This document shows, piece by piece, positions 6,351 through 50,776 of a stretch of DNA of 64,000 nt. The position numbers and the translations under genes are program-made. The notes under the pieces were generated by a model. The model did no database searches, was not told the origin of the DNA, and saw only the letters and a program-made list of their open reading frames with translations. Within the stretch, counting starts at the first letter, position 1. Each line of letters starts with the position of its first letter. The stretch covers positions 96,001 through 160,000 of the forward strand of contig CM000430.1 of assembly GCA_000165345.1 (NCBI GenBank), read 5' to 3'.

Positions 6351-6600
6351 TGACACCACTTATTACAAATATCGCTATTTACTCAACTCAATGTCACCAA
6401 AGGGACAACACTCTTAAAACTACCATAACGAAGCCATTCTTAACACCACCATAAAGACACTACTCTTAACACAACTCATAACATTACTATTAAAATCACT
6501 CCCAACTCTACTTCTACTCTATTACTATTCTCAGTTTTATACCCCAAAGCTAATTTCCTTTAGTCCCACTACCACTACCAAGAATTCCCGCCCATTTCTA

Positions 6601-6653
6601 TGCATGCATGGATTTTACAACTTACGTGTCAATTGACACGTAATTTGCATGCA
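6601..6653. promoter_or_regulatory. Motif cluster: TGCATGCATG, 18-nt perfect palindrome ACGTGTCAATTGACACGT (6624..6641), ACGTAAT, TGCATGCA
   Basis: Read directly from the sequence. TGCATGCA is one of the over-represented upstream motifs of Cryptosporidium genes (established knowledge). The cluster lies between the end of the Sfi1-like gene and the 3' end of the porin gene. Confidence 0.4.
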
Positions 6654-6734
6654 AAAATTATTAATTTATATTGAAAGAGAAGGAGAAAGGGAGGAAAAAA
6701 AGAGAGGAGGGAACAGAAAAAGACATAGTAGGAC

Positions 6735-6893
6735 AAGACAAAGTAAAGCGAGACAAAGCAAAGCAAGACGACAAAGCAAAGCAAGAAGACAAAGCAAAGC
6801 AAGACAAGGTAAAACTAGGCCAAGTTTATTTTAATTTTATCCGTATGCAATTATTATTACTGCTATTACTATTACTATTATTATTACTATTTT
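6735..6893 (+). repeat. Intergenic low-complexity repeats: (ACAAAGCAAAGCAAGA)n purine tract followed by (TTA/TAT)n
   Basis: Direct repeats are visible. The two track ORFs here (6649..6834, 6671..6895) are repeat artefacts. Confidence 0.7.
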
Positions 6894-6999
6894 GAAATTT
6901 TTAAATAATAGAGTAATACATATTGGGAGGTGAAATATTATAATTCTATTTATTTTATTCTCTTCTCTGAATGTAATATTCGTTTACTTGATTCTTAAT

Positions 7000-8866: not shown

Positions 8867-10003
8867 TTACTTTGATAATGTATTTGTTACAATATCTTCA
8901 ATTGTACTAAATACCTGCTTAATCATTTTACCTCCATTTTGATTACTCTTTTTATTATCATTTTTTTTATTATTTTCATCAACATCATCCTCCTTTTCTA
9001 AATCCTTTACTTCATCATTATTATTATTAGACTTCTTCTTTAATCCATCAAAAACATCATTAACCTTCTCTTCAACTCTTTCTAATAAACCCTTCTTTGC
9101 TAATACTCTCAAATTGGATGTATTATTATAATATACAATTTCTGGTGTTTTGATTGGTGATGCTGTATCATTATACCTTTTACCATCACTACTTATACTT
9201 GTTTCATTATATAATGGATTATTCTTAATATTTTTATCACGATTATTATCTTCATTTTCATCATCATCTTCTTCTTCATCCCTATCTTGTACTATAATTC
9301 TCTCATTACCACTCAAACCAGCTCTATTAAAACCTGTTAATGTTGGAAACCTTTGTAAATAATCACTTTCCCTATTCAATAAATTATTAACAGGATTGTT
9401 TCCTGATGAAGAAGTTTGATTTCTTTGCATTAAAGATTCATTAGAATTCTGTAAATCATTATTTTGATTTCCATTAGATAATATTCCATCTTGTAAATCA
9501 TTAATAAATCCAGGTGTCATATTTTCCATAGGAATCATTACATCCATCTTTCTTTCATTTGATTCAGATTCATTACCTAAATATCTAAAATATGGTCCAG
9601 GTAATGGAGCATATGGTAATGGTGAAACATATCCAACTGGTCGTGTAAATACTCCTCCTGGTCTAGAGGTTGTTCTTGTGTATGAATATGAATAATTATA
9701 TGGATATCCTGGCACTCCTGCATATGGATATTGATATGAATATGTATATGGATATTGATATGAATAAGTATATGAATATGGGTATTGATATTGATATGGA
9801 TATGAGTAATACACAGGTTGTTCTACAAAATATGGACGATCCACAAATACTGTTTGATCTCCTACATAGCCTCCTCTTCTATGTCCAAGTGATCTTACTT
9901 CAGTAGTAGAATTCTTTTCTTGTTTTTGAGACTTAACTACATTTCCCAAGCATGCCAATATTAATATTATAACTGTTGTATTTTTTAATGTAAACTTGAC
10001 CAT
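8867..10003 (-). CDS. Secreted tyrosine-rich repeat protein (YPYSYTYSYQ-type repeats), followed by Asn/Asp/Glu-rich tail
   Basis: ATG start at 10003. Signal-peptide-like N-terminus (TTVIILILACLGNVVKS). Residues ~60-110 are almost entirely Y/P/S/T/Q (YYSYPYQYQYPYSYTYSYQYPYTYSYQYPYAGVPGYPYNYSYSY). Confidence 0.5.
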   Translation of the reverse strand: MVKFTLKNTTVIILILACLGNVVKSQKQEKNSTTEVRSLGHRRGGYVGDQTVFVDRPYFVEQPVYYSYPYQYQYPYSYTYSYQYPYTYSYQYPYAGVPGYPYNYSYSYTRTTSRPGGVFTRPVGYVSPLPYAPLPGPYFRYLGNESESNERKMDVMIPMENMTPGFINDLQDGILSNGNQNNDLQNSNESLMQRNQTSSSGNNPVNNLLNRESDYLQRFPTLTGFNRAGLSGNERIIVQDRDEEEDDDENEDNNRDKNIKNNPLYNETSISSDGKRYNDTASPIKTPEIVYYNNTSNLRVLAKKGLLERVEEKVNDVFDGLKKKSNNNNDEVKDLEKEDDVDENNKKNDNKKSNQNGGKMIKQVFSTIEDIVTNTLSK

Positions 10004-10488
10004 CTTTAATACTTGAAAAAAATTGGATATAAATATTGAAAAAAAAATTTCTAAATCTTCTTTATTTAATGTTTAAAAAAAATTGATTTATTTATATTAG
10101 TATTTATTTTATAGCTTCAATTGTCTTTATACCTTCTTCAGTCAATATTGAAACTATAAATATTATCACGATGATAAATAGTATTAATAATATTTTTATT
10201 GATTATTACTTGCAATAAAATATATATATATATATTATCAACTATATTTAATACAATAATTAAAAGTTATTATTATTCTCTTGAACAACCTTCAATTATT
10301 GTTATATATCTGAAAATTGAATTATATTTAAAATAAAAATAAAAATATTTTTATTAAAAATAAAATTCAAATTAATATACAAAAAATAAAAAAAGTAAAT
10401 TTTGTTATCTATTGTCCTCCTCATTATCTTTGGAAATTATTGATTCTTTTTATTACACGAATTTATTGTCCACATTAATATTATGATT

Positions 10489-10514
10489 ATTGCATGCATG
10501 CAATTTTACACGTG
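10489..10514. promoter_or_regulatory. 16-nt perfect palindrome ATTGCATGCATGCAAT plus CACGTG box, upstream of the Tyr-rich protein gene
   Basis: Read from the sequence. It lies ~490 nt upstream of the ATG at 10003 on the minus strand. Confidence 0.4.
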
Positions 10515-10721
10515 TTGTATAAATCTTAATACCGGTATCAAATTAATGATGATATATATACGTAATAAATTACTTAATAATAAAATAATTCGTAATTATT
10601 ACGAATTAATTATTTATTAAAATTATTAATTATTACGTAATTATTATGTAATATATGTATATATATATTTTTTAATAATTAATATTAAAGGAAAAAAATA
10701 TTAAAATAATATTTAAAGGGC

Positions 10722-16981: not shown

Positions 16982-17484
16982 TTTCCTATTTCTTGATCCA
17001 CTTAATTGCTACTTTAATAATCAATTTTGTATTGATAATTAAATCCTTTTAATGGTTTTTACTTATCTACTTTAGTCTTCATTATTATTATTATTATCAT
17101 TTTTATTTTTATTACAACACTTCCATAGTAAGAAATTGAAGTAAACCAAGGTTAAATCTAGAGGATTAAGTCTAATCAACCATAATTGTTGAAATAAATT
17201 GAGAAATTTCTAGTAGAAGATAATAGGTTAAACAAAATGGGTATTTTGGTGTTACATCAAAAGCCCGCCATCACTTAAGTAAATCAGTTTCTATGCTATT
17301 GATATATTAATTTGTTTTACCTATAAAACTTGCCAATCTGTGCAAAAAAGTTTAAATATTAGCATTTATTTAAAGTAAATCTTTCCCATTACACTGTTTT
17401 ATCCTAGAACTACACTCTTTAATATCATTAGTCTAAAAACTTTAAAGAAAAAAATTTATAAACTAATATATTGTTGATTTGTTC

Positions 17485-17535
17485 ATGCATGCAAACTAAT
17501 GAAATTAGAACGATGACGTAATGGGCGCCAAAATT
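17485..17535. promoter_or_regulatory. CATGCATGCA … TGACGTAATGGGCGCCAAAATT promoter-type motif pair in a 3'-3' convergent spacer
   Basis: Sequence motifs. Both flanking genes (16299..16981 + and 17982..19700 -) end here, so no annotated gene is available to use the motifs. Confidence 0.35.
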
Positions 17536-17981
17536 CCAATTCGAGATTTTAAAATCTACATTAGATGTAATATTTATAGAATTTTTTTTTCTATAGTTGT
17601 TTTATATTTCATGATACACATACATACACACTGTAATTTTTTCTTTTTGAATTTTTCTCCAACTTATGGTATATTATTGATTAGACCTCACCCGGTCTCA
17701 CTCAATGTTCGAATAATCTCGGGAATAAATTAAATTTTCATTCCGGACTAAATTGAATTAAAATATAGAAATATGTTAGATTTACTAAAAGATATATCTA
17801 AAAAGATTAGATAGATTTAAAAAAAAAGATAAGGTGAGATTAATTTGTGATTCTTTTTTTTAAAATAATATTTATTGAAAACTAATTATTCTTGTAAATA
17901 TTTTTCATTACAACTTATAATGATCAAATAATATATTGCGCAAACAGTTCCCGCATTTTAGTCAAATGTGATATTTGGAAC

Positions 17982-30861: not shown

Positions 30862-37557
<6,696 letters not shown>

Positions 37558-38631: not shown

Positions 38632-39912
38632 ATGAAATATGTAGCTTTGTTCTGTTTAATCATTCAAACAGTGGCAGTAATTTTCTTTATGAGGATTTCT
38701 CGTATTAAAAAGTCAGAAAATGATGAATTATATTTTAATTCTTGTGCTGTGGTAATGTCAGAAATCCTCAAGCTTTTAAGTTCATTATTAATAGTATTAT
38801 ATTCTAATAATTTTAATATGGTTGAATTTTACAATACATTGAGATTTGAAGTATTTAACTCATTTAAAACTAATATTCTTGTAGGTGTTCCTGGGCTGCT
38901 CTATGTTGTCCAGAATAACTTACTATTTATTGCATTGTCAAATCTATCAGGAGCAGTATACCATGTTACTTATCAACTTAAGATCCTTGCAACGGCAATA
39001 TTATCAGTTATTATATTGAATAAACAACTTTCAAAAATAAGATGGTTGTCTTTACTTTTACTTACAATTGGAGCAGTACTAGTACAAACAGGAAAATCAT
39101 CGGAGTCAAAAACTCCAAATAACTCAGGTTTAGTTGCTGAAAATACTGACAATTTTTTGGGTCTTTGTTCAGTTTTATTAGCATGCTTTACCAGTGGTTT
39201 GGCAGGAGTTTTTGTTGAGAAACTTTTAAAAGATAGTAAAACCAGTATTTGGGGTAGAAATGTACAGCTTGCTTTGTATGGTATAATTTTTGGATTAATT
39301 GGATGCCTTACAGGAAAAGAAGGATTAGAAATTTCTCAAAAAGGTTTCTTTTTTGGATTCAACACTCTTGTTTGGTTTGTTATTATATTACAAGCTATTG
39401 GAGGAATTATTGTTGCTGCTGTGCTTAAATATGCCGATAACATCCTAAAATGCTTTGGTAATTCGTTTAGTATTATTATGAGCTGTATTCTATCCTGGTA
39501 TCTTGGTGATTATAGCATTACGCTAAATTTCTTTGCTGGTTCAGTTCTTGTAATTTGGTCAATATTTATTTATGGACTTGAAAGAGCTTTTCCTTGCTCT
39601 GAATATCTTCTCAAACTTAAACTAATTTTAAAAAGGAATTCCAGAAACAAAATTATTGCTAAATACAAGAATCTTAGAGAATCTAGCTCGGAAGCTTCTT
39701 TTGACTTTAATGACCAAAACTCTGGAACCAGGAATAATCATCTAAACAGCTTGAATAATCAAAATAAAAATAGCAATATACTGAGCAATAGCAAATTTAA
39801 GAATATCAATAACTTTATCAATCAGCAAAACCAAAATAGAGATAATTATGGCGAAATTGATGATGTTATACCAAAAGGTCTTCAGATGGCAATCATTTCT
39901 TCTGGTGTTTAA
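38632..39912 (+). CDS. Nucleotide-sugar transporter (SLC35A UDP-Gal/UDP-GlcNAc/CMP-Sia family)
   Basis: ATG 38632. The block VPGLLYVVQNNLLFIALSNLSGAVYHVTYQLKILATAILSVIILNKQLSKIRWLSLLLLTIGAVLVQ is the signature core of SLC35A transporters. There are ~10 TM helices and an Asn-rich C-terminal tail. A tentative upstream exon (38424..38450) is described under findings. Confidence 0.7.
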   Translation: MKYVALFCLIIQTVAVIFFMRISRIKKSENDELYFNSCAVVMSEILKLLSSLLIVLYSNNFNMVEFYNTLRFEVFNSFKTNILVGVPGLLYVVQNNLLFIALSNLSGAVYHVTYQLKILATAILSVIILNKQLSKIRWLSLLLLTIGAVLVQTGKSSESKTPNNSGLVAENTDNFLGLCSVLLACFTSGLAGVFVEKLLKDSKTSIWGRNVQLALYGIIFGLIGCLTGKEGLEISQKGFFFGFNTLVWFVIILQAIGGIIVAAVLKYADNILKCFGNSFSIIMSCILSWYLGDYSITLNFFAGSVLVIWSIFIYGLERAFPCSEYLLKLKLILKRNSRNKIIAKYKNLRESSSEASFDFNDQNSGTRNNHLNSLNNQNKNSNILSNSKFKNINNFINQQNQNRDNYGEIDDVIPKGLQMAIISSGV

Positions 39913-40000
39913 ATACTCTTTTAATCTATTTTGAAGAATTATCTTCCCATGTTTAACTAAATTATTACTTCAATTCAACTAAACATATATTTTATACAAC

Positions 40001-40090
40001 CCGCACCAACTCCATGAAATAATTGACTTCGCATGCACCATTGCAATGCATGCTCGAATTTTCGTGGAAGCGGGTCCAATGTGGACAAAT
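40001..40090. promoter_or_regulatory. Inverted-repeat motif cluster (ACCCGC…GCATGCA CCAT TGCAATGCATGC…GCGGGT) in a 3'-3' convergent spacer; a second GC island lies at 40330..40420
   Basis: Read from the sequence. The spacer separates the sugar-transporter 3' end (39912) from the CCT-alpha 3' end (40515). Confidence 0.35.
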
Positions 40091-40514
40091 ATATAATTAA
40101 TATATATAGTTTTACTATTTGCTTTCTTCTTAGTTATAGATTCGTTCTTTTACTAAATTTTCTTCCGAAAGTTTTAGCTGAAAACTGCTAATTAGTATCT
40201 CTAGAATGGCTTTCTATATAAGAACTACTAAAAATAAAAAAAAATAAAAAATTGTTATTCATTATATAAACTTAGTGACTGATATCGTAAATCTAGCTAA
40301 AGTATTTCACTGATAGCTATAAAAAATATATTTGCCGCCTTTTCGGTGTGGGGAGGGAAGTCGTTACATAGAAAAGGTCACCTGGCCCGTTGGGCGGGCT
40401 CTCGAATTAAATAGAGTAAAAGTCAACCAGAACATTTCTTCCCTCTTGAATCCTAATTTACTTGGTTGATATCAAAGAATGAAAAGGAATTAAACTTCAA
40501 ATGATGAAAGTTGT

Positions 40515-42218
40515 TTACTCGTTTCCTTGTTGGTTCTCTACGGGTTTTACTTTAATGTAGTCATCAATACGGAGAAGCGTGATTGCAGCTTCTGTTGCAA
40601 ATCTTAAAGACTTAAGTTTGCTGATAGTTGGTTCCAAAACTCCTGCTTGGACATTATCTCTTACTGTTCCATTAATTAAATCAAGCCCAAAAAATTTGTA
40701 TTTATCTTGATCTTGAGATTTTACTGTTAAATCTGAAGAAGTTGGTTTAGTAGCATAGTTATTGAGTTGTCCTTGTTGGGCGCTTGCATGGTATGCTCTA
40801 AGTCTAGCAACCAAGTCTGTTGCATCTTTAGCGGAATTAATTGCCAAAGTTTTAGGAATAACCAAAAGTGCCTCAGCAAATTCCGCAATTGCAAGCTGTT
40901 CTCTAGACCCAAGAGTGCGAGCAAAGTCTTCTAAGTAAATACTCAAAGCAGCCTCCACTGCTCCTCCTCCTGCAACATATCCATTTGACTCTAAAAGCTT
41001 AGATACGGAACACAAAGCATCATTTAGAGAGCGCTCAAGCTCATCTAATAGAACCTCATTTGCTCCTCTTAATACAATTGAGGCTGCTCTATGAGTCTTG
41101 CAACCAAGGAACATCATATAATCAGTGTCTCCAATACGTTCTTCTCTTACTTCTTGGCATTCTCCAAGATAAGCCGGGTCAAATGATTCCTCTGAATCCT
41201 CTAATTGTGCCATTGTAAGGCAGATTGTCGCTCCTGTTGCCTTGGCAATTCTTCTTAAATCAACCTTCTCTACCCTTCTAACTGCAATACAACCAGCTGA
41301 GACAAAATATTTCATGCATTGATCATCAATACCCCCTGAAGTCAAAACTACATTACAACCTGTAGCCAAAATCTTTTCAATACGTTTGTGAATTACTTCC
41401 TTCTCTTCCAGTCTAATCCTTGCAAGTTCTTTTGGATCTTCCAATTCAACACGAATACCCATTTGCATTCTGTATTGTTTTAAAGGAAAGTCTATACATG
41501 CAATTTTGACATTTTTTACAGACGTTGGCATTCCCTGGCAAGCTCTACCTGTATGGGAGAGAGCATAACCCTCAACCAAAAATGACTCTGATAAACCTTT
41601 ACCATGAGTTTTTAATATGTTCAAAGATTTTACTGGATACTTGACAGCTCCTGTTAAGGGGTCTGTAGCCTTTACTGTCATTATTGAATCTACTACCAAC
41701 TTCCCAAAAAACTCTGAGTCTGCTCCTGCTAGCTTTGATGATAGCACAGTTTTAGCAACATTAAGGCAGCATTCCTCACTAATTGTCTCATTAATAGATA
41801 AAGACCCAGAAATATATCTCACACACTCCTTTAGAGCCAACTTATAACCAGAAATTACATTTGAAGGATGAGACCCATTGCTAACTAAAGATGTACCTCT
41901 CCTTAGTAACTCAGCAGCTAATAAAACTACAGATGTTGTGCCATCCCCCACTTCCTTGTCCTGTAGCTCACTCAAATCTACTAGTACTCGCCCAGCTGGG
42001 TGCTTTACTTCCAATTGGCTTAAAATTGTAGCACCATCATTAGTTACTATTACTTCGCCCACCTCATCAACAAGCATCTTATCCAACCCTTGGGGTCCCA
42101 ATGACGACTTTAATATATTTGCTATCGACATTACTGCTGTCAAATTATTAGACCTCACATCACTCCCATGTTGTCGCTCTCCGTGAATTGATTGATCCTG
42201 AGATGGTTTTGCCAACAT
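40515..42218 (-). CDS. CCT1: T-complex protein 1 (CCT/TRiC chaperonin) subunit alpha
   Basis: ATG at 42218. 567 aa. LGPQGLDKMLVDEVGEVIVTNDGATIL; ISGYKLALKECVRYI (human TCP1 ISGYRLACKEAVRYI); NVKIACIDFPLKQYRMQMGIRVELEDPKELARIRLEEKEVIHKRIEKILATGCNVVLTSGGIDDQCMKYFVSAGCIAVRRV (human NAKIACLDFSLQKTKMKLGVQVVITDPEKLDQIRQRESDITKERIQKILATGANVILTTGGIDDMCLKYFVEAGAMAVRRV); GGGAVEAALSIYLE. Confidence 0.85.
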   Translation of the reverse strand: MLAKPSQDQSIHGERQHGSDVRSNNLTAVMSIANILKSSLGPQGLDKMLVDEVGEVIVTNDGATILSQLEVKHPAGRVLVDLSELQDKEVGDGTTSVVLLAAELLRRGTSLVSNGSHPSNVISGYKLALKECVRYISGSLSINETISEECCLNVAKTVLSSKLAGADSEFFGKLVVDSIMTVKATDPLTGAVKYPVKSLNILKTHGKGLSESFLVEGYALSHTGRACQGMPTSVKNVKIACIDFPLKQYRMQMGIRVELEDPKELARIRLEEKEVIHKRIEKILATGCNVVLTSGGIDDQCMKYFVSAGCIAVRRVEKVDLRRIAKATGATICLTMAQLEDSEESFDPAYLGECQEVREERIGDTDYMMFLGCKTHRAASIVLRGANEVLLDELERSLNDALCSVSKLLESNGYVAGGGAVEAALSIYLEDFARTLGSREQLAIAEFAEALLVIPKTLAINSAKDATDLVARLRAYHASAQQGQLNNYATKPTSSDLTVKSQDQDKYKFFGLDLINGTVRDNVQAGVLEPTISKLKSLRFATEAAITLLRIDDYIKVKPVENQQGNE

Positions 42219-42362
42219 ATTATATATATATGTTTTACTTGACTCCTTTATTTATGTTTTTTTATAAAATATATATATATAAATATTTATTTATGTACAA
42301 TCTTCTCTTTTTCCCTCTTCACTTCCTTCAAGACTTTTTCTTGCACTTTTAAAAGCCCCTTA

Positions 42363-42404
42363 CCGCCCAAACTCAAATACCGGCCTGAGAGACGGCGCCA
42401 AACC
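42363..42404. promoter_or_regulatory. CCGCCCAAA … GACGGCGCCAAACC boxes ~150-190 nt upstream of the CCT-alpha ATG
   Basis: Sequence motif (E2F-like family). It sits correctly for a minus-strand promoter. Confidence 0.45.
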
Positions 42405-43269
42405 TGCCCCAATTAATTAACTGCTTGGCAAAAGTTATTTTTACCAAATTGTTGATGAAAATGTGAATATTTGTTTGATTTACTTTGTGTGGTTATGTGT
42501 GAATTACATTATATTGTAAATTATTGGGTTCTTATTTAGTTTACTTTTACAAATCTTGTGGCCTTTCATACAACTATACTTATACAATATATTTTGTCTC
42601 CGATAGCTAAGATTAGATTCAATGGCACTTATTAGAAATTTTGTCTATTGTAAACGTGTATGCTCACTATTCTAATATTCATTTTTTATTTAACACTTTT
42701 TTTCTCTCTCCAAGCTTAACATGAACTCATTCCTCTATTATTTGAAGAAAAAAAAGAGAACTGTCCCTCGTAACTCTATGCACTTCTACGAATTCTATAG
42801 TTATTCAGAGCCTTCTTTAACTAACAATGACTATCTTTGAACTCACAAATGTAAAAAAATCTCGCATGTTCAAATTCTCCAAACTCTGCTCAGAGAAATC
42901 ACTCAATTCCGCAATATTCAAATTATTCCTAAAAAAAAAAGAAAAACCTAAGATGTACTTATGTTCTACCAATTATCAATCAATTTATTCACAAAAAGAA
43001 AACAAATTTTATATGTTTATTAAAATTTTACTAATTAATATATCGCTAATTTGCATGTTTTTACCGCCAAATAATTGACGAATTTAAAGAATCATCCCTT
43101 GGTAATTGTTATTGCGTGGAGTATAAAAGCCAGAAATTCAAAAACAATCCTTTCATCTTTCGCTCTTTAATTACAATTATAGGCCATTAGAAGACTAAAA
43201 CTATGACTGGTTTCAAATTCAACCAAAACTCGAAATATACACACAATATTTAATAATCTCATCGTAAAG

Positions 43270-47749: not shown

Positions 47750-47853
47750 TTTATAGATCATATTTGCAAATACATAAGTATATAATTTAACTTGACTACC
47801 TTAGCTATTTCTTTTCCTTTCATCGTTTTTTTTATATTCTACAAGCAATGACT

Positions 47854-47893
47854 AATTGGCGCCAAAATCATTTCCATGCAATACTTCCCGCCT
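47854..47893. promoter_or_regulatory. AATTGGCGCCAAAAT (E2F-like palindrome) + CATGCAAT + TTCCCGCC in a 3'-3' convergent spacer; a second box, CACACGTAATATGCATGCAAG, lies at 48126..48146
   Basis: Sequence motifs lying between the Kir 3' end (47749) and the phosphoesterase 3' end (48651). Confidence 0.35.
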
Positions 47894-48650
47894 TGTTTTT
47901 TATTTTAAAAGTTATTCATTGCCTCCAAATTAATTTTGTAACTATTCTTTAGTATCTTTTTTTTAGTAAAAAATATAATCATTGTTATAGTTTTTTTGAA
48001 ATAAAAATCAACATTGTCAACCTAAGTGTTTTCTAGTACTTTTCAAACTTGTACATGTGTTATCCACCACAAGCTACTTCAACCCTTCAATCACTTTACT
48101 CACTATTTTGTGTGGGGGAAAAATGCACACGTAATATGCATGCAAGTTGTAAATAAATAGAGAAAAAAAACTAAAATTGTAGATAAAAATAATTAACTCT
48201 CTTATATTATCACTACAATCTACTGTGCATTATTCACCCCTTCTACATGAAGTATTTAATATACTATTTATAAATCTACATATCCCAAAATGAATAACTC
48301 CAAGAAAGTAATATCCAAAATAAGAAGAGTAAGTGCTTAGTACTTTAAAATGATTACCATTCTTCATCATTTAATTCATTTGCTTGTAACAATAGCCATT
48401 AGCAACTTAATGTATTAATTATTCTTCTTAAAAACTAATAATATTAGCATTCTTCAACTTATGGCACTTTTCCCTGATCTAATTTATGTCTGAATATCAT
48501 TTATACTATATAGTTCATTTTCTATTATCAATATTGATTATATTATTATGCCTCAACATAAACTCTCCTCTCTCTCGCCCCACTCAAAAAAAAAAACTAG
48601 TCTTAATGAAAGATTAAATTCTGACTCGAGATTATCACTTATTCTTCTTT

Positions 48651-49670
48651 TTACTTTTTGTTAATAATCAATGAACCTATACAAGTTGCTAAGATCATTA
48701 ATCCTACAGTTCCAACGATCTTAAGGAAAGCTTCGCGTGATAAATGTTTAGCTCCCTTCTTGAATGTTAATTCAATCATCTCTAAAGCAGGTAATTCATC
48801 GCCAGCAATACCTTGGAATGATAAAGATGGAGATGGTAATTGAGTATTAATTGGTGATAATTCAACTTGATTACCATTTTGAATGATATATGGAACCATC
48901 TTGCTACCATCAACCTTAAATGAGCAATAAGAATCACAGTTCAAGAAAGTAGTACCTTCAATAGTTGAGTTGTATGTACCCCTATTTTGACCACTAATTA
49001 CAAGCTCAACATGAGTATCCAAAATAAGTTGTTGAACCTTCTTTAACGAAGAATCGATTGAATATGAAGAAGCCAAGTATTTGTTTCCAACTACAACAGT
49101 GAAATCATGATGTTTATGACCATAGTGTAAAGTTGCATTCAAATTTTGGAAGGCTTGTTCAGAAACTTTGTGGTCTGGGAAAGAGCTGGAAAGAATAAAA
49201 GTATCAATGAATACAAATAAAACAGTACCATCTCTTCTAGATAACACATTTGAAGTATCAGTATAGTGTGAAACATAATGATAAAAGTAATTTGGGAAAC
49301 TAAATCTTGGGAAAATATCATTATTGCTATCATAAGTTACATTATTTCTCTTCAATAGCAAGTTAGCATTCCCATTATCCCAATCAGCTTGACCCATTGC
49401 TGCGAACAATGGAATCTGGAGAGATTTTTCTGAGTAAATATTCTCAAAACAATGTTTGAAATCAATTCCACCAGGAAAGTTATCTCCAGGACTAACCAAT
49501 AATGAGAATGGAGTCTTCTCTGCTTGGGCTTTTAAAACAGAAGCTACCTTTTTTTGGTTTCCAGAACATCCATAATTTGATAATGATGCAAAATATAATT
49601 CTCCATTAACTCTATTTGAACTAACAAATATACACAAAACGATTCCAAAAACTAGAAGTAATGCTCTCAT
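48651..49670 (-). CDS. Calcineurin-like metallophosphoesterase, purple/tartrate-resistant acid phosphatase (ACP5)-like, with signal peptide and C-terminal hydrophobic anchor; metal-binding motifs partly degenerate
   Basis: ATG 49670. Signal peptide ALLLVFGIVLCIFVSS. LLVSPGDNFPGGID resembles ACP5 VGDNFY. AAMGQADWDN sits where GNHD should be. HYGHKHHDF resembles AGHDHN. The C-terminus IVGTVGLMILATCIGSLIINKK is a TM or GPI-type anchor. Confidence 0.5.
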   Translation of the reverse strand: MRALLLVFGIVLCIFVSSNRVNGELYFASLSNYGCSGNQKKVASVLKAQAEKTPFSLLVSPGDNFPGGIDFKHCFENIYSEKSLQIPLFAAMGQADWDNGNANLLLKRNNVTYDSNNDIFPRFSFPNYFYHYVSHYTDTSNVLSRRDGTVLFVFIDTFILSSSFPDHKVSEQAFQNLNATLHYGHKHHDFTVVVGNKYLASSYSIDSSLKKVQQLILDTHVELVISGQNRGTYNSTIEGTTFLNCDSYCSFKVDGSKMVPYIIQNGNQVELSPINTQLPSPSLSFQGIAGDELPALEMIELTFKKGAKHLSREAFLKIVGTVGLMILATCIGSLIINKK

Positions 49671-50776
49671 CCTTTTATTAAAATATAAACAGTTGCTTTC
49701 ACTTTTTGTAATATTGTTTTATATAAGACTATAATTTTTCTTTTTCGGTAATGTGTTTCTTACTCACAATTTTTAATTAATATTTGGCTATTCAATAACC
49801 CAATAGTGGAATTCTTTAAATTCGATATTTATACTTAATTCCTAATTTTATTATTTAAAAAAAAAAAAAACCTACCTTTTTTACCTTTTCAAAATAATAA
49901 AAATGTCTTTTTTCCTTATAATATGCTTGCTTCCACCTTTTGATTAAGCCTCACACTATTTATAAACCTTGTTCCTCATTACAAAAATCAAATCTGTATG
50001 CAAGCACATCTACATACATTATTGACGACATTACGTCATTACAAATGGATCAAGTCTCCATGTACCCCATTTTACATACATTAACGTTTTGTCCTCACAA
50101 CTTTAAAAATTTAACATATGTCTCGTTTTCTTTTTTTGAATACTGTTAAATATTCGTGTTTTTTTTTTACGATCTCTTTAATTGATTTTTAACAGTTAAA
50201 TCTATTAAGATGAAAATTCTTTCTCATTTTCTTATTTTTCAATATTCCTCATCATTATCCGCATGCACAATTTTTCCCCAATTTGATGCGTGTGCACTGT
50301 GTCTTTTTTGTGAAATTTTATAACACTTAATTTTTGATATCAAGGCTTTTTTTTAATTAATTGAATCAAATATATTCGAATACAATTATCTAAATTCAAG
50401 CAGTATTTGAATCTTCATTTCAAGAATTTTGAATCCATCTTTTTTTTCCTAAAAATATGTGATAATTTGTTTGTCCACATAAGTGGGATATAGAAAAAAA
50501 ATTATGAAAGAGGGGAAAAATGCACGTAGAAAAATTAATAAATAGGAGAAAAAATTATAGCCAAGGGCTTGATTAGTAAAATATATTCATCAACGTAAAT
50601 TCAATATGCCTAATTATTGCATATATGTATAGAAGTAACGTAATTTGTTAATTTTCTTTTGCATCTTTCTCATTGCAATTTTGTAATTTTGAATTAATGA
50701 ATTTGATTTACAAATCATTGTCTTTTTTTTACCCTATTTGTTTTTACTCTTTTATTGATATTAATTAAAAAACCAA

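Follow-up and report, generated by a model that had tools for sequence, protein, structure and literature searches.

Two putative promoter modules in the convergent spacer between a nucleotide-sugar transporter gene and the CCT-alpha gene of Cryptosporidium parvum

The genome of Cryptosporidium is very compact and encodes few transcription factors, and antisense RNAs of unknown function occur at about 10% of its genes. Here, we describe an intergenic spacer in a stretch of 64,000 nucleotides (nt) of Cryptosporidium parvum DNA (GenBank assembly GCA_000165345.1, contig CM000430.1, positions 96,001 to 160,000 of the forward strand), which is referred to as the window and to which all coordinates apply. 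The open reading frame (ORF) at 38632-39912 (+) encodes a nucleotide-sugar transporter (Pfam Nuc_sug_transp). The ORF at 40515-42218 (-) encodes CCT-alpha, a protein of 567 amino acids that is identical in several C. parvum assemblies. The whole 3'-3' spacer between them, 39913-40514, is the feature under study. It corresponds to 849,754-850,355 on the opposite strand of C. parvum IOWA-ATCC (CP044421.1), where the two modules described below map to about 850159-850269 (element 1) and 849869-849937 (GC island). A first-pass annotation made from the letters alone had placed a spacer of about 600 nt between these two 3' ends, which agrees with the ORF ends at 39912 (+) and 40515 (-). It had also drawn attention to two elements, a nested inverted repeat and a GC-rich island. 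The repeat, termed element 1 below, is indeed present, albeit not exactly at 40004-40076: it spans 39999-40075, so that the start was off by 5 nt and the end by 1 nt. The features of the spacer are as follows, from left to right.

39999-40004, + strand: ACCCGC, forming the 5' arm of the outer repeat and containing CCCGC, the complement of an E2F-like half-site
40030-40038, strand-neutral: CGCATGCAC, exact match to AP2_1 (BGCATGCAH)
40040-40053, strand-neutral: palindrome ATTGCAAT (40040-40047) with a second GCATGC core (TGCATGC, 40047-40053)
40054-40075, + strand: TCGAATTTTCG...GCGGGT (GCGGGT at 40070-40075), conserved spacer and GCGGG E2F-like half-site forming the 3' arm of the outer repeat
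40079-40088, + strand: ATGTGGACAA, reverse complement of motif 5 (TTGTCCACATK), directly after the repeat
40090-40109, + strand: TATATAATTAATATATATAG, AT-rich TATA-like or TAATTA box, immediately 3' of motif 5
40115-40130, + strand: predicted transcription start (about 40121), by analogy only, with the published RNA Cp_lnc_106 and with copies of ATGTGGACAA that precede an ATG
40233-40248, + strand: A-rich run with two AATAAA hexamers, which are the first + strand matches to the poly(A) signal past the transporter stop (321 nt)
40258-40330, strand-neutral: AT-rich block with TTCATTATATAAACTTAGTG, two copies of TAGCTA (40294-40299 and 40314-40319) and AAAGTATTTCAC
40331-40340, strand-neutral: TTTGCCGCCT, exact match to the E2F-like motif DTTGSCGCCH
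40346-40357, + strand: GTGTGGGG(AGGG), with GTGTGGGG at 40346-40353 as an exact match to the G-box DTGTGGGG
40379-40399, strand-neutral: CACCTGG plus TGGGCGGGC, containing the E2F-like core GGCGGG; a 7-bp local hairpin spans 40384-40400
40404-40422, + strand: GAATTAAATAGAGTAAAAG, conserved unpaired stretch with AGTAAA (40415-40420), a match to the poly(A) signal
40457-40462, - strand: AGTAAA, 58 nt past the CCT-alpha stop, likely the CCT-alpha poly(A) signal

The word CTCGAATT occurs once right after each of the two elements, at 40053-40060 (GCATGCTCGAATT) and at 40401-40408 (GGGCTCTCGAATT), and reads (C/T)(C/T)GAATT in relatives.

Orthologous convergent transporter/CCT-alpha pairs were recovered from 11 further taxa: C. 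hominis, C. meleagridis, chipmunk genotype I, C. ubiquitum, C. canis, C. felis, the Logan assemblies L018 (close to C. canis) and L019 (close to C. ubiquitum), C. ryanae, C. andersoni and C. serpentis. When four-fold degenerate sites of the CCT-alpha gene are compared with C. parvum, the identity is 0.86 for C. meleagridis, 0.73 for chipmunk genotype I, 0.69 for L019, 0.63 for C. ubiquitum and 0.34 for both C. canis and L018. Two entries look like annotation errors: in C. ryanae (L001, 7832-13722) the transporter is fused with a large upstream gene into one model of 2195 amino acids, and C. canis CCT-alpha proteins carry the NCBI name 'nucleotide-sugar transporter'.

The first-pass annotation had spoken of promoter-type motifs, and this description holds: the motifs are exact published C. 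parvum upstream motifs, they are enriched, the E2F-like sites are found almost exclusively in non-coding DNA, and the motifs are conserved in orthologous spacers. The motifs reported by Oberstaller et al. 2013 (PMC3734150) as over-represented upstream of C. parvum genes include AP2_1 (BGCATGCAH), bound by the ApiAP2 protein cgd2_3490, the E2F-like motifs DTTGSCGCCH and TTTGGCGGGAAV with the core GGCGGG, and the G-box DTGTGGGG, bound by the ApiAP2 protein cgd8_810. Motif 5, TTGTCCACATK, is one of five motifs located no more than 100 bp upstream of C. parvum long non-coding RNAs (lncRNAs; Li et al. 2021, PMC7840661, table S3). In the available part of that table it often occurs together with an AP2_1 site, and in 9 of 13 rows it is oriented as in the spacer and located at -23 to -93. 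When compared with these consensus sequences, CGCATGCAC, TTTGCCGCCT and GTGTGGGG all proved to be exact matches, GGGCGGG contains the core GGCGGG, and ATGTGGACAA, which is absent from the first-pass annotation, is the reverse complement of TTGTCCACAT(K) and thus of motif 5. A literature search for ATGTGGACAA returned primer matches only. A metagenome scan with GCGGG-N3-8-RTGTGGACAA, a pattern that was too loose, gave 120 chance matches, none of them from Cryptosporidium.

All four core words are more frequent in the window than expected, 5- to 90-fold overall: 19 versus 3.4 for GCATGC, five exact copies versus 0.14 for ATGTGGACAA, 15 versus 0.17 for TTGSCGCC and eight versus 1.6 for TGTGGGG. 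Shuffled sequences served as the control, and none attained the observed count for any of the four. Their location is biased as well. While long ORFs make up 69% of the window, 14 of the 15 strand-hits for TTGSCGCC lie in non-coding DNA. GCATGC and GGCGGG are found in all four long convergent spacers (6351-6999, 16982-17981, 39913-40514 and 47750-48650), three of which additionally hold the E2F-like site TTGSCGCC. None of these motifs is present in the two short convergent spacers of 62 and 215 nt. In three further ATGTGGACAA copies, 10466 (-), 33266 (+) and 50471 (-), an ATG follows 32-41 nt past the 3' end of the motif. The surroundings of these copies share further words with element 1, namely TTATACAAC, CCCGCACC(A/G)AC and GCGGGT. 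We consider GCATGC, ATGTGGACAA, TTGCCGCC and TGTGGGG as candidate binding motifs of the two modules.

The GC island highlighted by the first-pass annotation is real. It occupies 40331-40399 and contains GCCGCC (40334-40339), GGGGAGGG (40350-40357) and GGGCGGG (40392-40398). Its composition is as striking for an AT-rich spacer as had been stated, with 59% G+C at 40332-40400 versus 24% in the remainder. All intergenic 69-nt segments of the 64 kb average 24.5% G+C (standard deviation 8.7); just 0.04% reach the value of the island, which is the top G+C peak among them. The further intergenic peaks, at 42343, 15756, 30246 and 44717, are promoters with E2F sites, including that of CCT-alpha itself.

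Two blocks of the spacer exceed its middle part by 13-28 identity points in comparisons between species. The first, 39973-40122, comprises element 1 together with motif 5 and the TATA-like box, and the second, 40253-40432, comprises the AT-rich block and the GC island. Within the first block, GCATGC is found at the syntenic place in nine of nine intestinal-clade species. GCGGG or GGCGG stands beside motif 5 in eight of the nine (not in C. felis; GGCGG in C. ubiquitum and L019). It is retained even where the 5' arm of the repeat is lacking, as in L018. The motif-5 word TGTGGACAA is unaltered in six species and differs by a single base in two more, (A/G)TGTGGACAA being flanked by GCGGG and ATAATTAAT in most of them, and ATAATTRAT is kept in six. 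Note that CAATTAATTAA, which is similar to the TATA-like box, is present in the CCT-alpha promoter proper. The 5' arm ACCCGC reads TCCGC or TCCGT in C. hominis and chipmunk genotype I. In L018 this arm of the hairpin has been lost and GCATGCATGCTCGAATTTTCG..GGCGGG..GTGTGGACAAGTATAATTAATA is retained; it is the sequence that is conserved and not the pairing.

In the island, TGTGGGG is kept in six of six close species despite an alignment shift, ACCTGG in five (ATCTGG in chipmunk genotype I) and TTTGCCGCCT in four. The core GGCGGG is retained in C. parvum, C. hominis and C. meleagridis. It is replaced by AGCGGG in chipmunk genotype I and has been lost from C. ubiquitum and L019. The 7-bp hairpin is preserved in C. 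ubiquitum by a C-G to U-A change and broken in L019 and C. meleagridis. C. canis and L018 have no alignable GC island, and the second block of L018 falls under the nhmmer threshold. Other E2F- and G-box-like sites occur at non-alignable positions in the right half of the spacer in these two, which is how turnover of binding sites is expected to look. Conservation within the spacer is highest in the AT-rich block at 40258-40330, which has 80-88% identity to three relatives and can be recognised as far as C. canis. It has stops in all frames, no ORF and no consensus structure, and it matches nothing in the published motif lists except that some species have a word resembling (A/C)AACTA. An nhmmer search for paralogues of the second block in the window and 19 loci returned orthologues only. 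None of the motifs occurs in C. ryanae, with a spacer of 109 nt, or in C. andersoni and C. serpentis, which have long AT-rich spacers.

The first-pass annotation had also offered a structured element or a non-coding RNA (ncRNA) as an explanation, and as far as a structured or known RNA is concerned this was not borne out. There is no match in Rfam, no consensus structure or covariation, and the island is no more stable than shuffled sequences (z-score about -1.6, -1.5 to -1.7). Rfam searches at E<=10 with 2.5 kb and with the spacer alone, and at gathering score with the whole window, yielded nothing relevant, no match at E<=10 fell into the spacer, and none reached the gathering score anywhere in the window. 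ARAGORN detected neither a tRNA nor a tmRNA. RNAalifold found no structure shared by the orthologous spacers on either strand. Consensus energies were -12.6 (+) and -10.5 (-) kcal/mol for block 40256-40435 (six close species, 188 columns), -13.7 kcal/mol for the GC island alone and -2.6 kcal/mol for element 1 in nine species. The covariation term was about 0 or positive, and compensatory support is thus lacking. In C. parvum itself, element 1 folds into one long nested hairpin of -30 kcal/mol, the inner stem of which is formed by the second GCATGC core and the first GCATGCA. On the + strand its z-score is -3.8 by the tool used and -4.5 with our own shuffles; on the - strand it is -1.5 to -1.9. 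This folding is partly automatic, because GCATGC is its own reverse complement and two copies will pair. Across species the z-scores relative to shuffles are -1.7 to -4.5 in seven of nine and +0.9 and +1.6 in the other two, values that are likewise partly forced by GCATGC. Motif clusters located before genes or before Cp_lnc_106 fold no better than shuffles.

A conserved ORF was not found on either strand of the spacer, where both frame and length of the ORFs vary among species. C. hominis and C. meleagridis carry indels of 1-2 nt inside the island and the overlapping ORFs.

Several specific identities were considered and rejected. In a hand comparison with U5, U6, U4, the CR-I of RNase P/MRP, SRP, H/ACA and C/D box RNAs, required partners (ACAGAGA, the 3' strand of P4 and the boxes) were missing, and the covariance models gave no match. 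Likenesses are isolated: AAUU..CGUG.AAGCG..UCCA resembles the 3' end of U6, and GGGAAGUC resembles CR-I. A putative intron, GTATTT...CTGAT...ATATAG (40302-40331), lacks its AG in C. parvum and its GT in C. canis, and has no flanking exons. A purine/pyrimidine helix between GAGGGAAG (40351-40358) and CTTCCCTC (40439-40446) was discarded, the pyrimidine tract being lost in C. ubiquitum and L019.

The spacer is best explained, as far as can be judged from its sequence, by two modules that would act at the DNA level as promoter-type modules and not as structured RNAs. That these modules drive unannotated non-coding, possibly antisense, transcription we regard as probable, though not strongly so. 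Motif identity, enrichment, location bias and conservation, along with the absence of a conserved ORF and of RNA structure, are direct observations. In element 1 (about 39999-40109), the succession of two AP2_1 sites (GCATGC), the GCGGG half-site, ATGTGGACAA and the AT-rich TATA-like box would direct initiation by RNA polymerase II on the + strand near 40121. This start is predicted because motif 5 begins 42 nt upstream of the 5' end of Cp_lnc_106, a published antisense lncRNA on the - strand (5' end about 33175; ATGTGGACAA copy at 33208 (-)). The GC island (40331-40399) is a tight cluster of sites of the E2F/DP1 type and of the G-box (ApiAP2) type, similar to those found at true gene starts elsewhere in the window. 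If it fired rightward, the resulting RNA would be antisense to the 3' end of CCT-alpha, which corresponds to the commonest layout of C. parvum lncRNAs (Li et al. 2021, PMC7840661); if it fired leftward, transcription would cross the conserved AT-rich block and proceed towards the transporter gene. The product, an unannotated RNA, would either be short and confined to the spacer or run antisense into the 3' end of CCT-alpha. It would be non-coding, because neither module is followed by a conserved ORF: the first ATG past the predicted start, at 40207, opens only 13 codons and is AGG in C. meleagridis. We infer the start, the direction and the product from the order of the motifs and from the likeness to Cp_lnc_106.

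Several points speak against this interpretation. No transcript was seen at the locus, and 12- to 20-mers of the spacer are absent from the lncRNA sequences listed in the available part of Li et al. 2021 (PMC7840661). Likewise, the antisense strands of the transporter and CCT-alpha gene ends gave no k-mer match among the listed lncRNAs, and the entries listed in the supplements of that study, in which the gene numbering could not be matched, contain no transcript or gene identifier for the locus. AP2 motifs are not enriched in sporozoite peaks of the assay for transposase-accessible chromatin with sequencing (ATAC-seq; bioRxiv 10.1101/2025.01.17.633476). Element 1 forms a significantly stable hairpin in seven of nine species, and the arm sequences differ in C. 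canis, C. felis and C. ubiquitum. Simple binding sites do not require that a hairpin be maintained, and the self-complementary GCATGC accounts for part of its stability, not for the outer stems. Moreover, element 1 may sit inside the 3' untranslated region (3'UTR) of the transporter mRNA, since no poly(A) hexamer occurs on the + strand before +321. Finally, 40258-40432 is conserved as one piece of 180 nt, which is more reminiscent of the body of an RNA than of scattered sites.

The hairpin, the first poly(A) match at +321 and the AT-rich block give weight to two alternatives, namely one RNA gene some 300 nt long, or else a stem-loop in the 3'UTR. In the first of these, which we consider unlikely but by no means negligible, element 1 would be the promoter of one ncRNA gene starting at about 40121, and 40258-40432 including the GC island would be its functional 3' domain; the RNA would end past AGTAAA (40415-40420), tail to tail with the CCT-alpha mRNA. 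The 180-nt unit is continuous, with 67-91% identity versus about 45-78% for the middle of the spacer, is present as a single copy in the intestinal clade only, and ends with a match to the poly(A) signal just before the likely CCT-alpha signal. In addition, 43 novel intergenic ncRNAs of intermediate size have been reported for C. parvum, and 15 of 134 ncRNA predictions are conserved only in five close species (PMC9465071). These arguments are countered by the lack of an Rfam match and of consensus structure or covariation on both strands, and by an island that is no stabler than shuffles. Furthermore, the three GC-rich pieces of the island are exact promoter motifs that elsewhere are nearly confined to non-coding, mostly upstream DNA, and conservation is poor between the predicted start and the block.

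The second alternative regards the elements as cis elements that act at the RNA level in the neighbouring mRNAs. Element 1 would form a stem-loop within a long transporter 3'UTR (about 340 nt), with a role in stability, localisation or 3'-end formation, and the island would be a downstream element of the CCT-alpha transcript. We rate this as rather unlikely. The poly(A) signal is A(A/G)TAAA (bioRxiv 10.1101/2025.01.17.633476), and matches on the + strand of the spacer start at 40233, 40243 and 40415, none of them before +321. The hairpin is strong, in four species more so on the + strand (in C. parvum z-scores of -4.5 versus -1.9), the potential to form it exists in seven of nine species, and C-to-U changes in its 5' arm in C. 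hominis and chipmunk genotype I preserve G-U pairs. A second GCATGC palindrome, in the convergent spacer at 6600-6654, also forms a hairpin (z-score -4.5), whereas clusters upstream of genes do not fold. On the other hand, there is no consensus structure across the alignment (-2.6 kcal/mol), L018 and L019 lack the hairpin yet retain the motifs, copies of the self-complementary GCATGC pair automatically, and the best-kept parts (GCGGG, ATGTGGACAA and ATAATTAAT) lie outside the stem or at its edge. As for the island, a match to the poly(A) signal is found 58 nt past the CCT-alpha stop, at the same position in C. hominis, C. meleagridis and chipmunk genotype I (58-62 nt). The CCT-alpha mRNA therefore probably ends before the GC island, which argues against a downstream element.

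Clusters of binding sites that give rise to no transcript, serving as a boundary or insulator, as a roadblock for termination or in distal regulation of the neighbours, are improbable in our view. Their placement exactly between two 3' ends, the palindromic layout of the motifs, as at 6600-6654, and the occurrence of motif clusters in all long convergent spacers fit such a role. However, this class is undescribed in Cryptosporidium, where these motifs are known to occur ahead of mRNAs and lncRNAs, the order from AP2 via GCGGG and motif 5 to the TATA-like box is directional, and in at least one of the other long convergent spacers there is simply a hidden gene. Chance composition or a small unannotated protein-coding gene can practically be discarded: ORFs of 45 and 52 codons do overlap the elements, but enrichment and conservation rule out chance, and the ORFs are conserved neither in frame nor in length and are disrupted by indels of 1-2 nt in C. 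hominis and C. meleagridis.

A combined scenario is offered tentatively, as one with a small chance of being correct. The two facing modules may define a non-coding unit restricted to the intestinal clade and placed tail to tail between two housekeeping genes. It would yield either an RNA of about 300 nt, with the conserved 180-nt block at its 3' end acting by sequence and not by structure, or two convergent RNAs that overlap. Palindromes with GCATGC arms, such as those of element 1 and 6600-6654, may also mark convergent gene boundaries as a distinct class that combines a binding platform with a read-through hairpin.

If the two modules are indeed promoters, an unannotated non-coding unit would reside beside an essential chaperonin gene. 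Comprising about 110 and 70 bp, they would provide a small test case for ATGTGGACAA and for the combination of AP2, E2F and G-box sites. Long 3'-3' spacers in this genome probably hide transcription units, because in this window all of them carry promoter motifs and the short ones carry none, and this would serve as a practical annotation rule. The current understanding of the parasite remains unchanged.

Additional observations concern other motif-bearing sites in the window. The spacer at 47750-48650 contains TTGGCGCCAAAA (47856), CCCGCC (47887) and a G-box with ACACGTAAT and ATGCATGCA (48111-48148). Past this cluster lie an ATG (48290) and a GTAAGT donor (48329). Judging by these signals, 47850-48340 probably holds a small gene with an intron, encoded on the + strand and missed by the ORF listing. 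At 6580-6820, in another convergent spacer, TTCCCGCCC is followed by the nested palindrome TGCATGCA...TTACGTGTCAATTGACACGTAA...TGCATGCA and by a GACAAAGCAAAGCAA-like purine-rich tandem repeat at about 6740-6810. The spacer at 16982-17981 holds GGCGGG (17264), GCATGC (17487) and TTGGCGCC (17524). The arrangement ACACGTAAT-N-TGCATGCA is nearly identical at 6636-6654 and 48131-48148, ACGTGT adjoins GCATGC at 10496-10515, and ACACGTAAT-N-TGCATGCA may represent a composite site for two factors. At 10422-10475 and 50436-50480 (both -), an ATG lies 41 and 32 nt, respectively, past the 3' end of ATGTGGACAA. The long ORFs 8867-10003 and 48651-49670 lie well downstream of these ATGs, which could belong to unlisted first exons or small upstream genes. 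A dyad promoter-like module is present at 33175-33315 inside the ORF 30862-37557 (2231 amino acids), with inverted ATGTGGACAA copies at 33208 (-) and 33266 (+), GCATGC (33293), GGCGGG (33300) and CCCGCACCGAC. An in-frame ATG on the + strand (33313) follows 37 nt past the motif, and Logan gene calls give 1458 versus 2231 amino acids. This module may be an internal promoter or indicate a shorter isoform.

Among known systems, the region upstream of Cp_lnc_106 (about 33175-33300) resembles element 1 in having an exact ATGTGGACAA, GCATGC, CCCGCACC(A/G)AC and GCGGGTGC/GCGGGTCC, and in that no start of a protein-coding gene is annotated at the site. The Cp_lnc_106 module differs by two inverted copies of motif 5, a position inside a long ORF, a mapped transcript and a z-score of -0.5. 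Element 1, by contrast, lies between two 3' ends, has a single copy of motif 5 and no known transcript, and folds into a strong hairpin. The palindrome at 6600-6654 (spacer 6351-6999) has in common with element 1 two GCATGCA arms that enclose a central palindrome, a CCCGCC next to them, the 3'-3' spacer and a z-score of -4.5. Its centre is TTACGTGTCAATTGACACGTAA rather than ATTGCAAT, motif 5 is lacking and a purine-rich repeat follows. The GC island shares its TT(G/C)(G/C)CGCC, GGCGGG and G-runs with promoters of the E2F/DP1 plus G-box type, such as that of CCT-alpha (42340-42420; PMC3734150), a type also covered by the ATAC-seq study (bioRxiv 10.1101/2025.01.17.633476). Like the islands of these promoters, it measures about 60-70 nt and is a GC peak of intergenic AT-rich DNA. 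Those islands lie 100-300 nt upstream of start codons, whereas the island in the spacer faces the 3' end of CCT-alpha and is followed by no ORF on either strand. With the promoters of antisense and intergenic lncRNAs described by Li et al. 2021 (PMC7840661), the spacer shares the vocabulary of five motifs (E2F/DP1, ApiAP2 GCATGC and motif 5) and a position where a sense gene ends. It differs from these promoters in that no match exists among the lncRNAs in the available part of that catalogue and in that it has two facing modules, about 220 nt apart. According to the same source, many C. parvum lncRNA promoters are thought to be bidirectional. Elements of this kind have already been described in C. 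parvum, and the spacer between the transporter and CCT-alpha genes would add another member.

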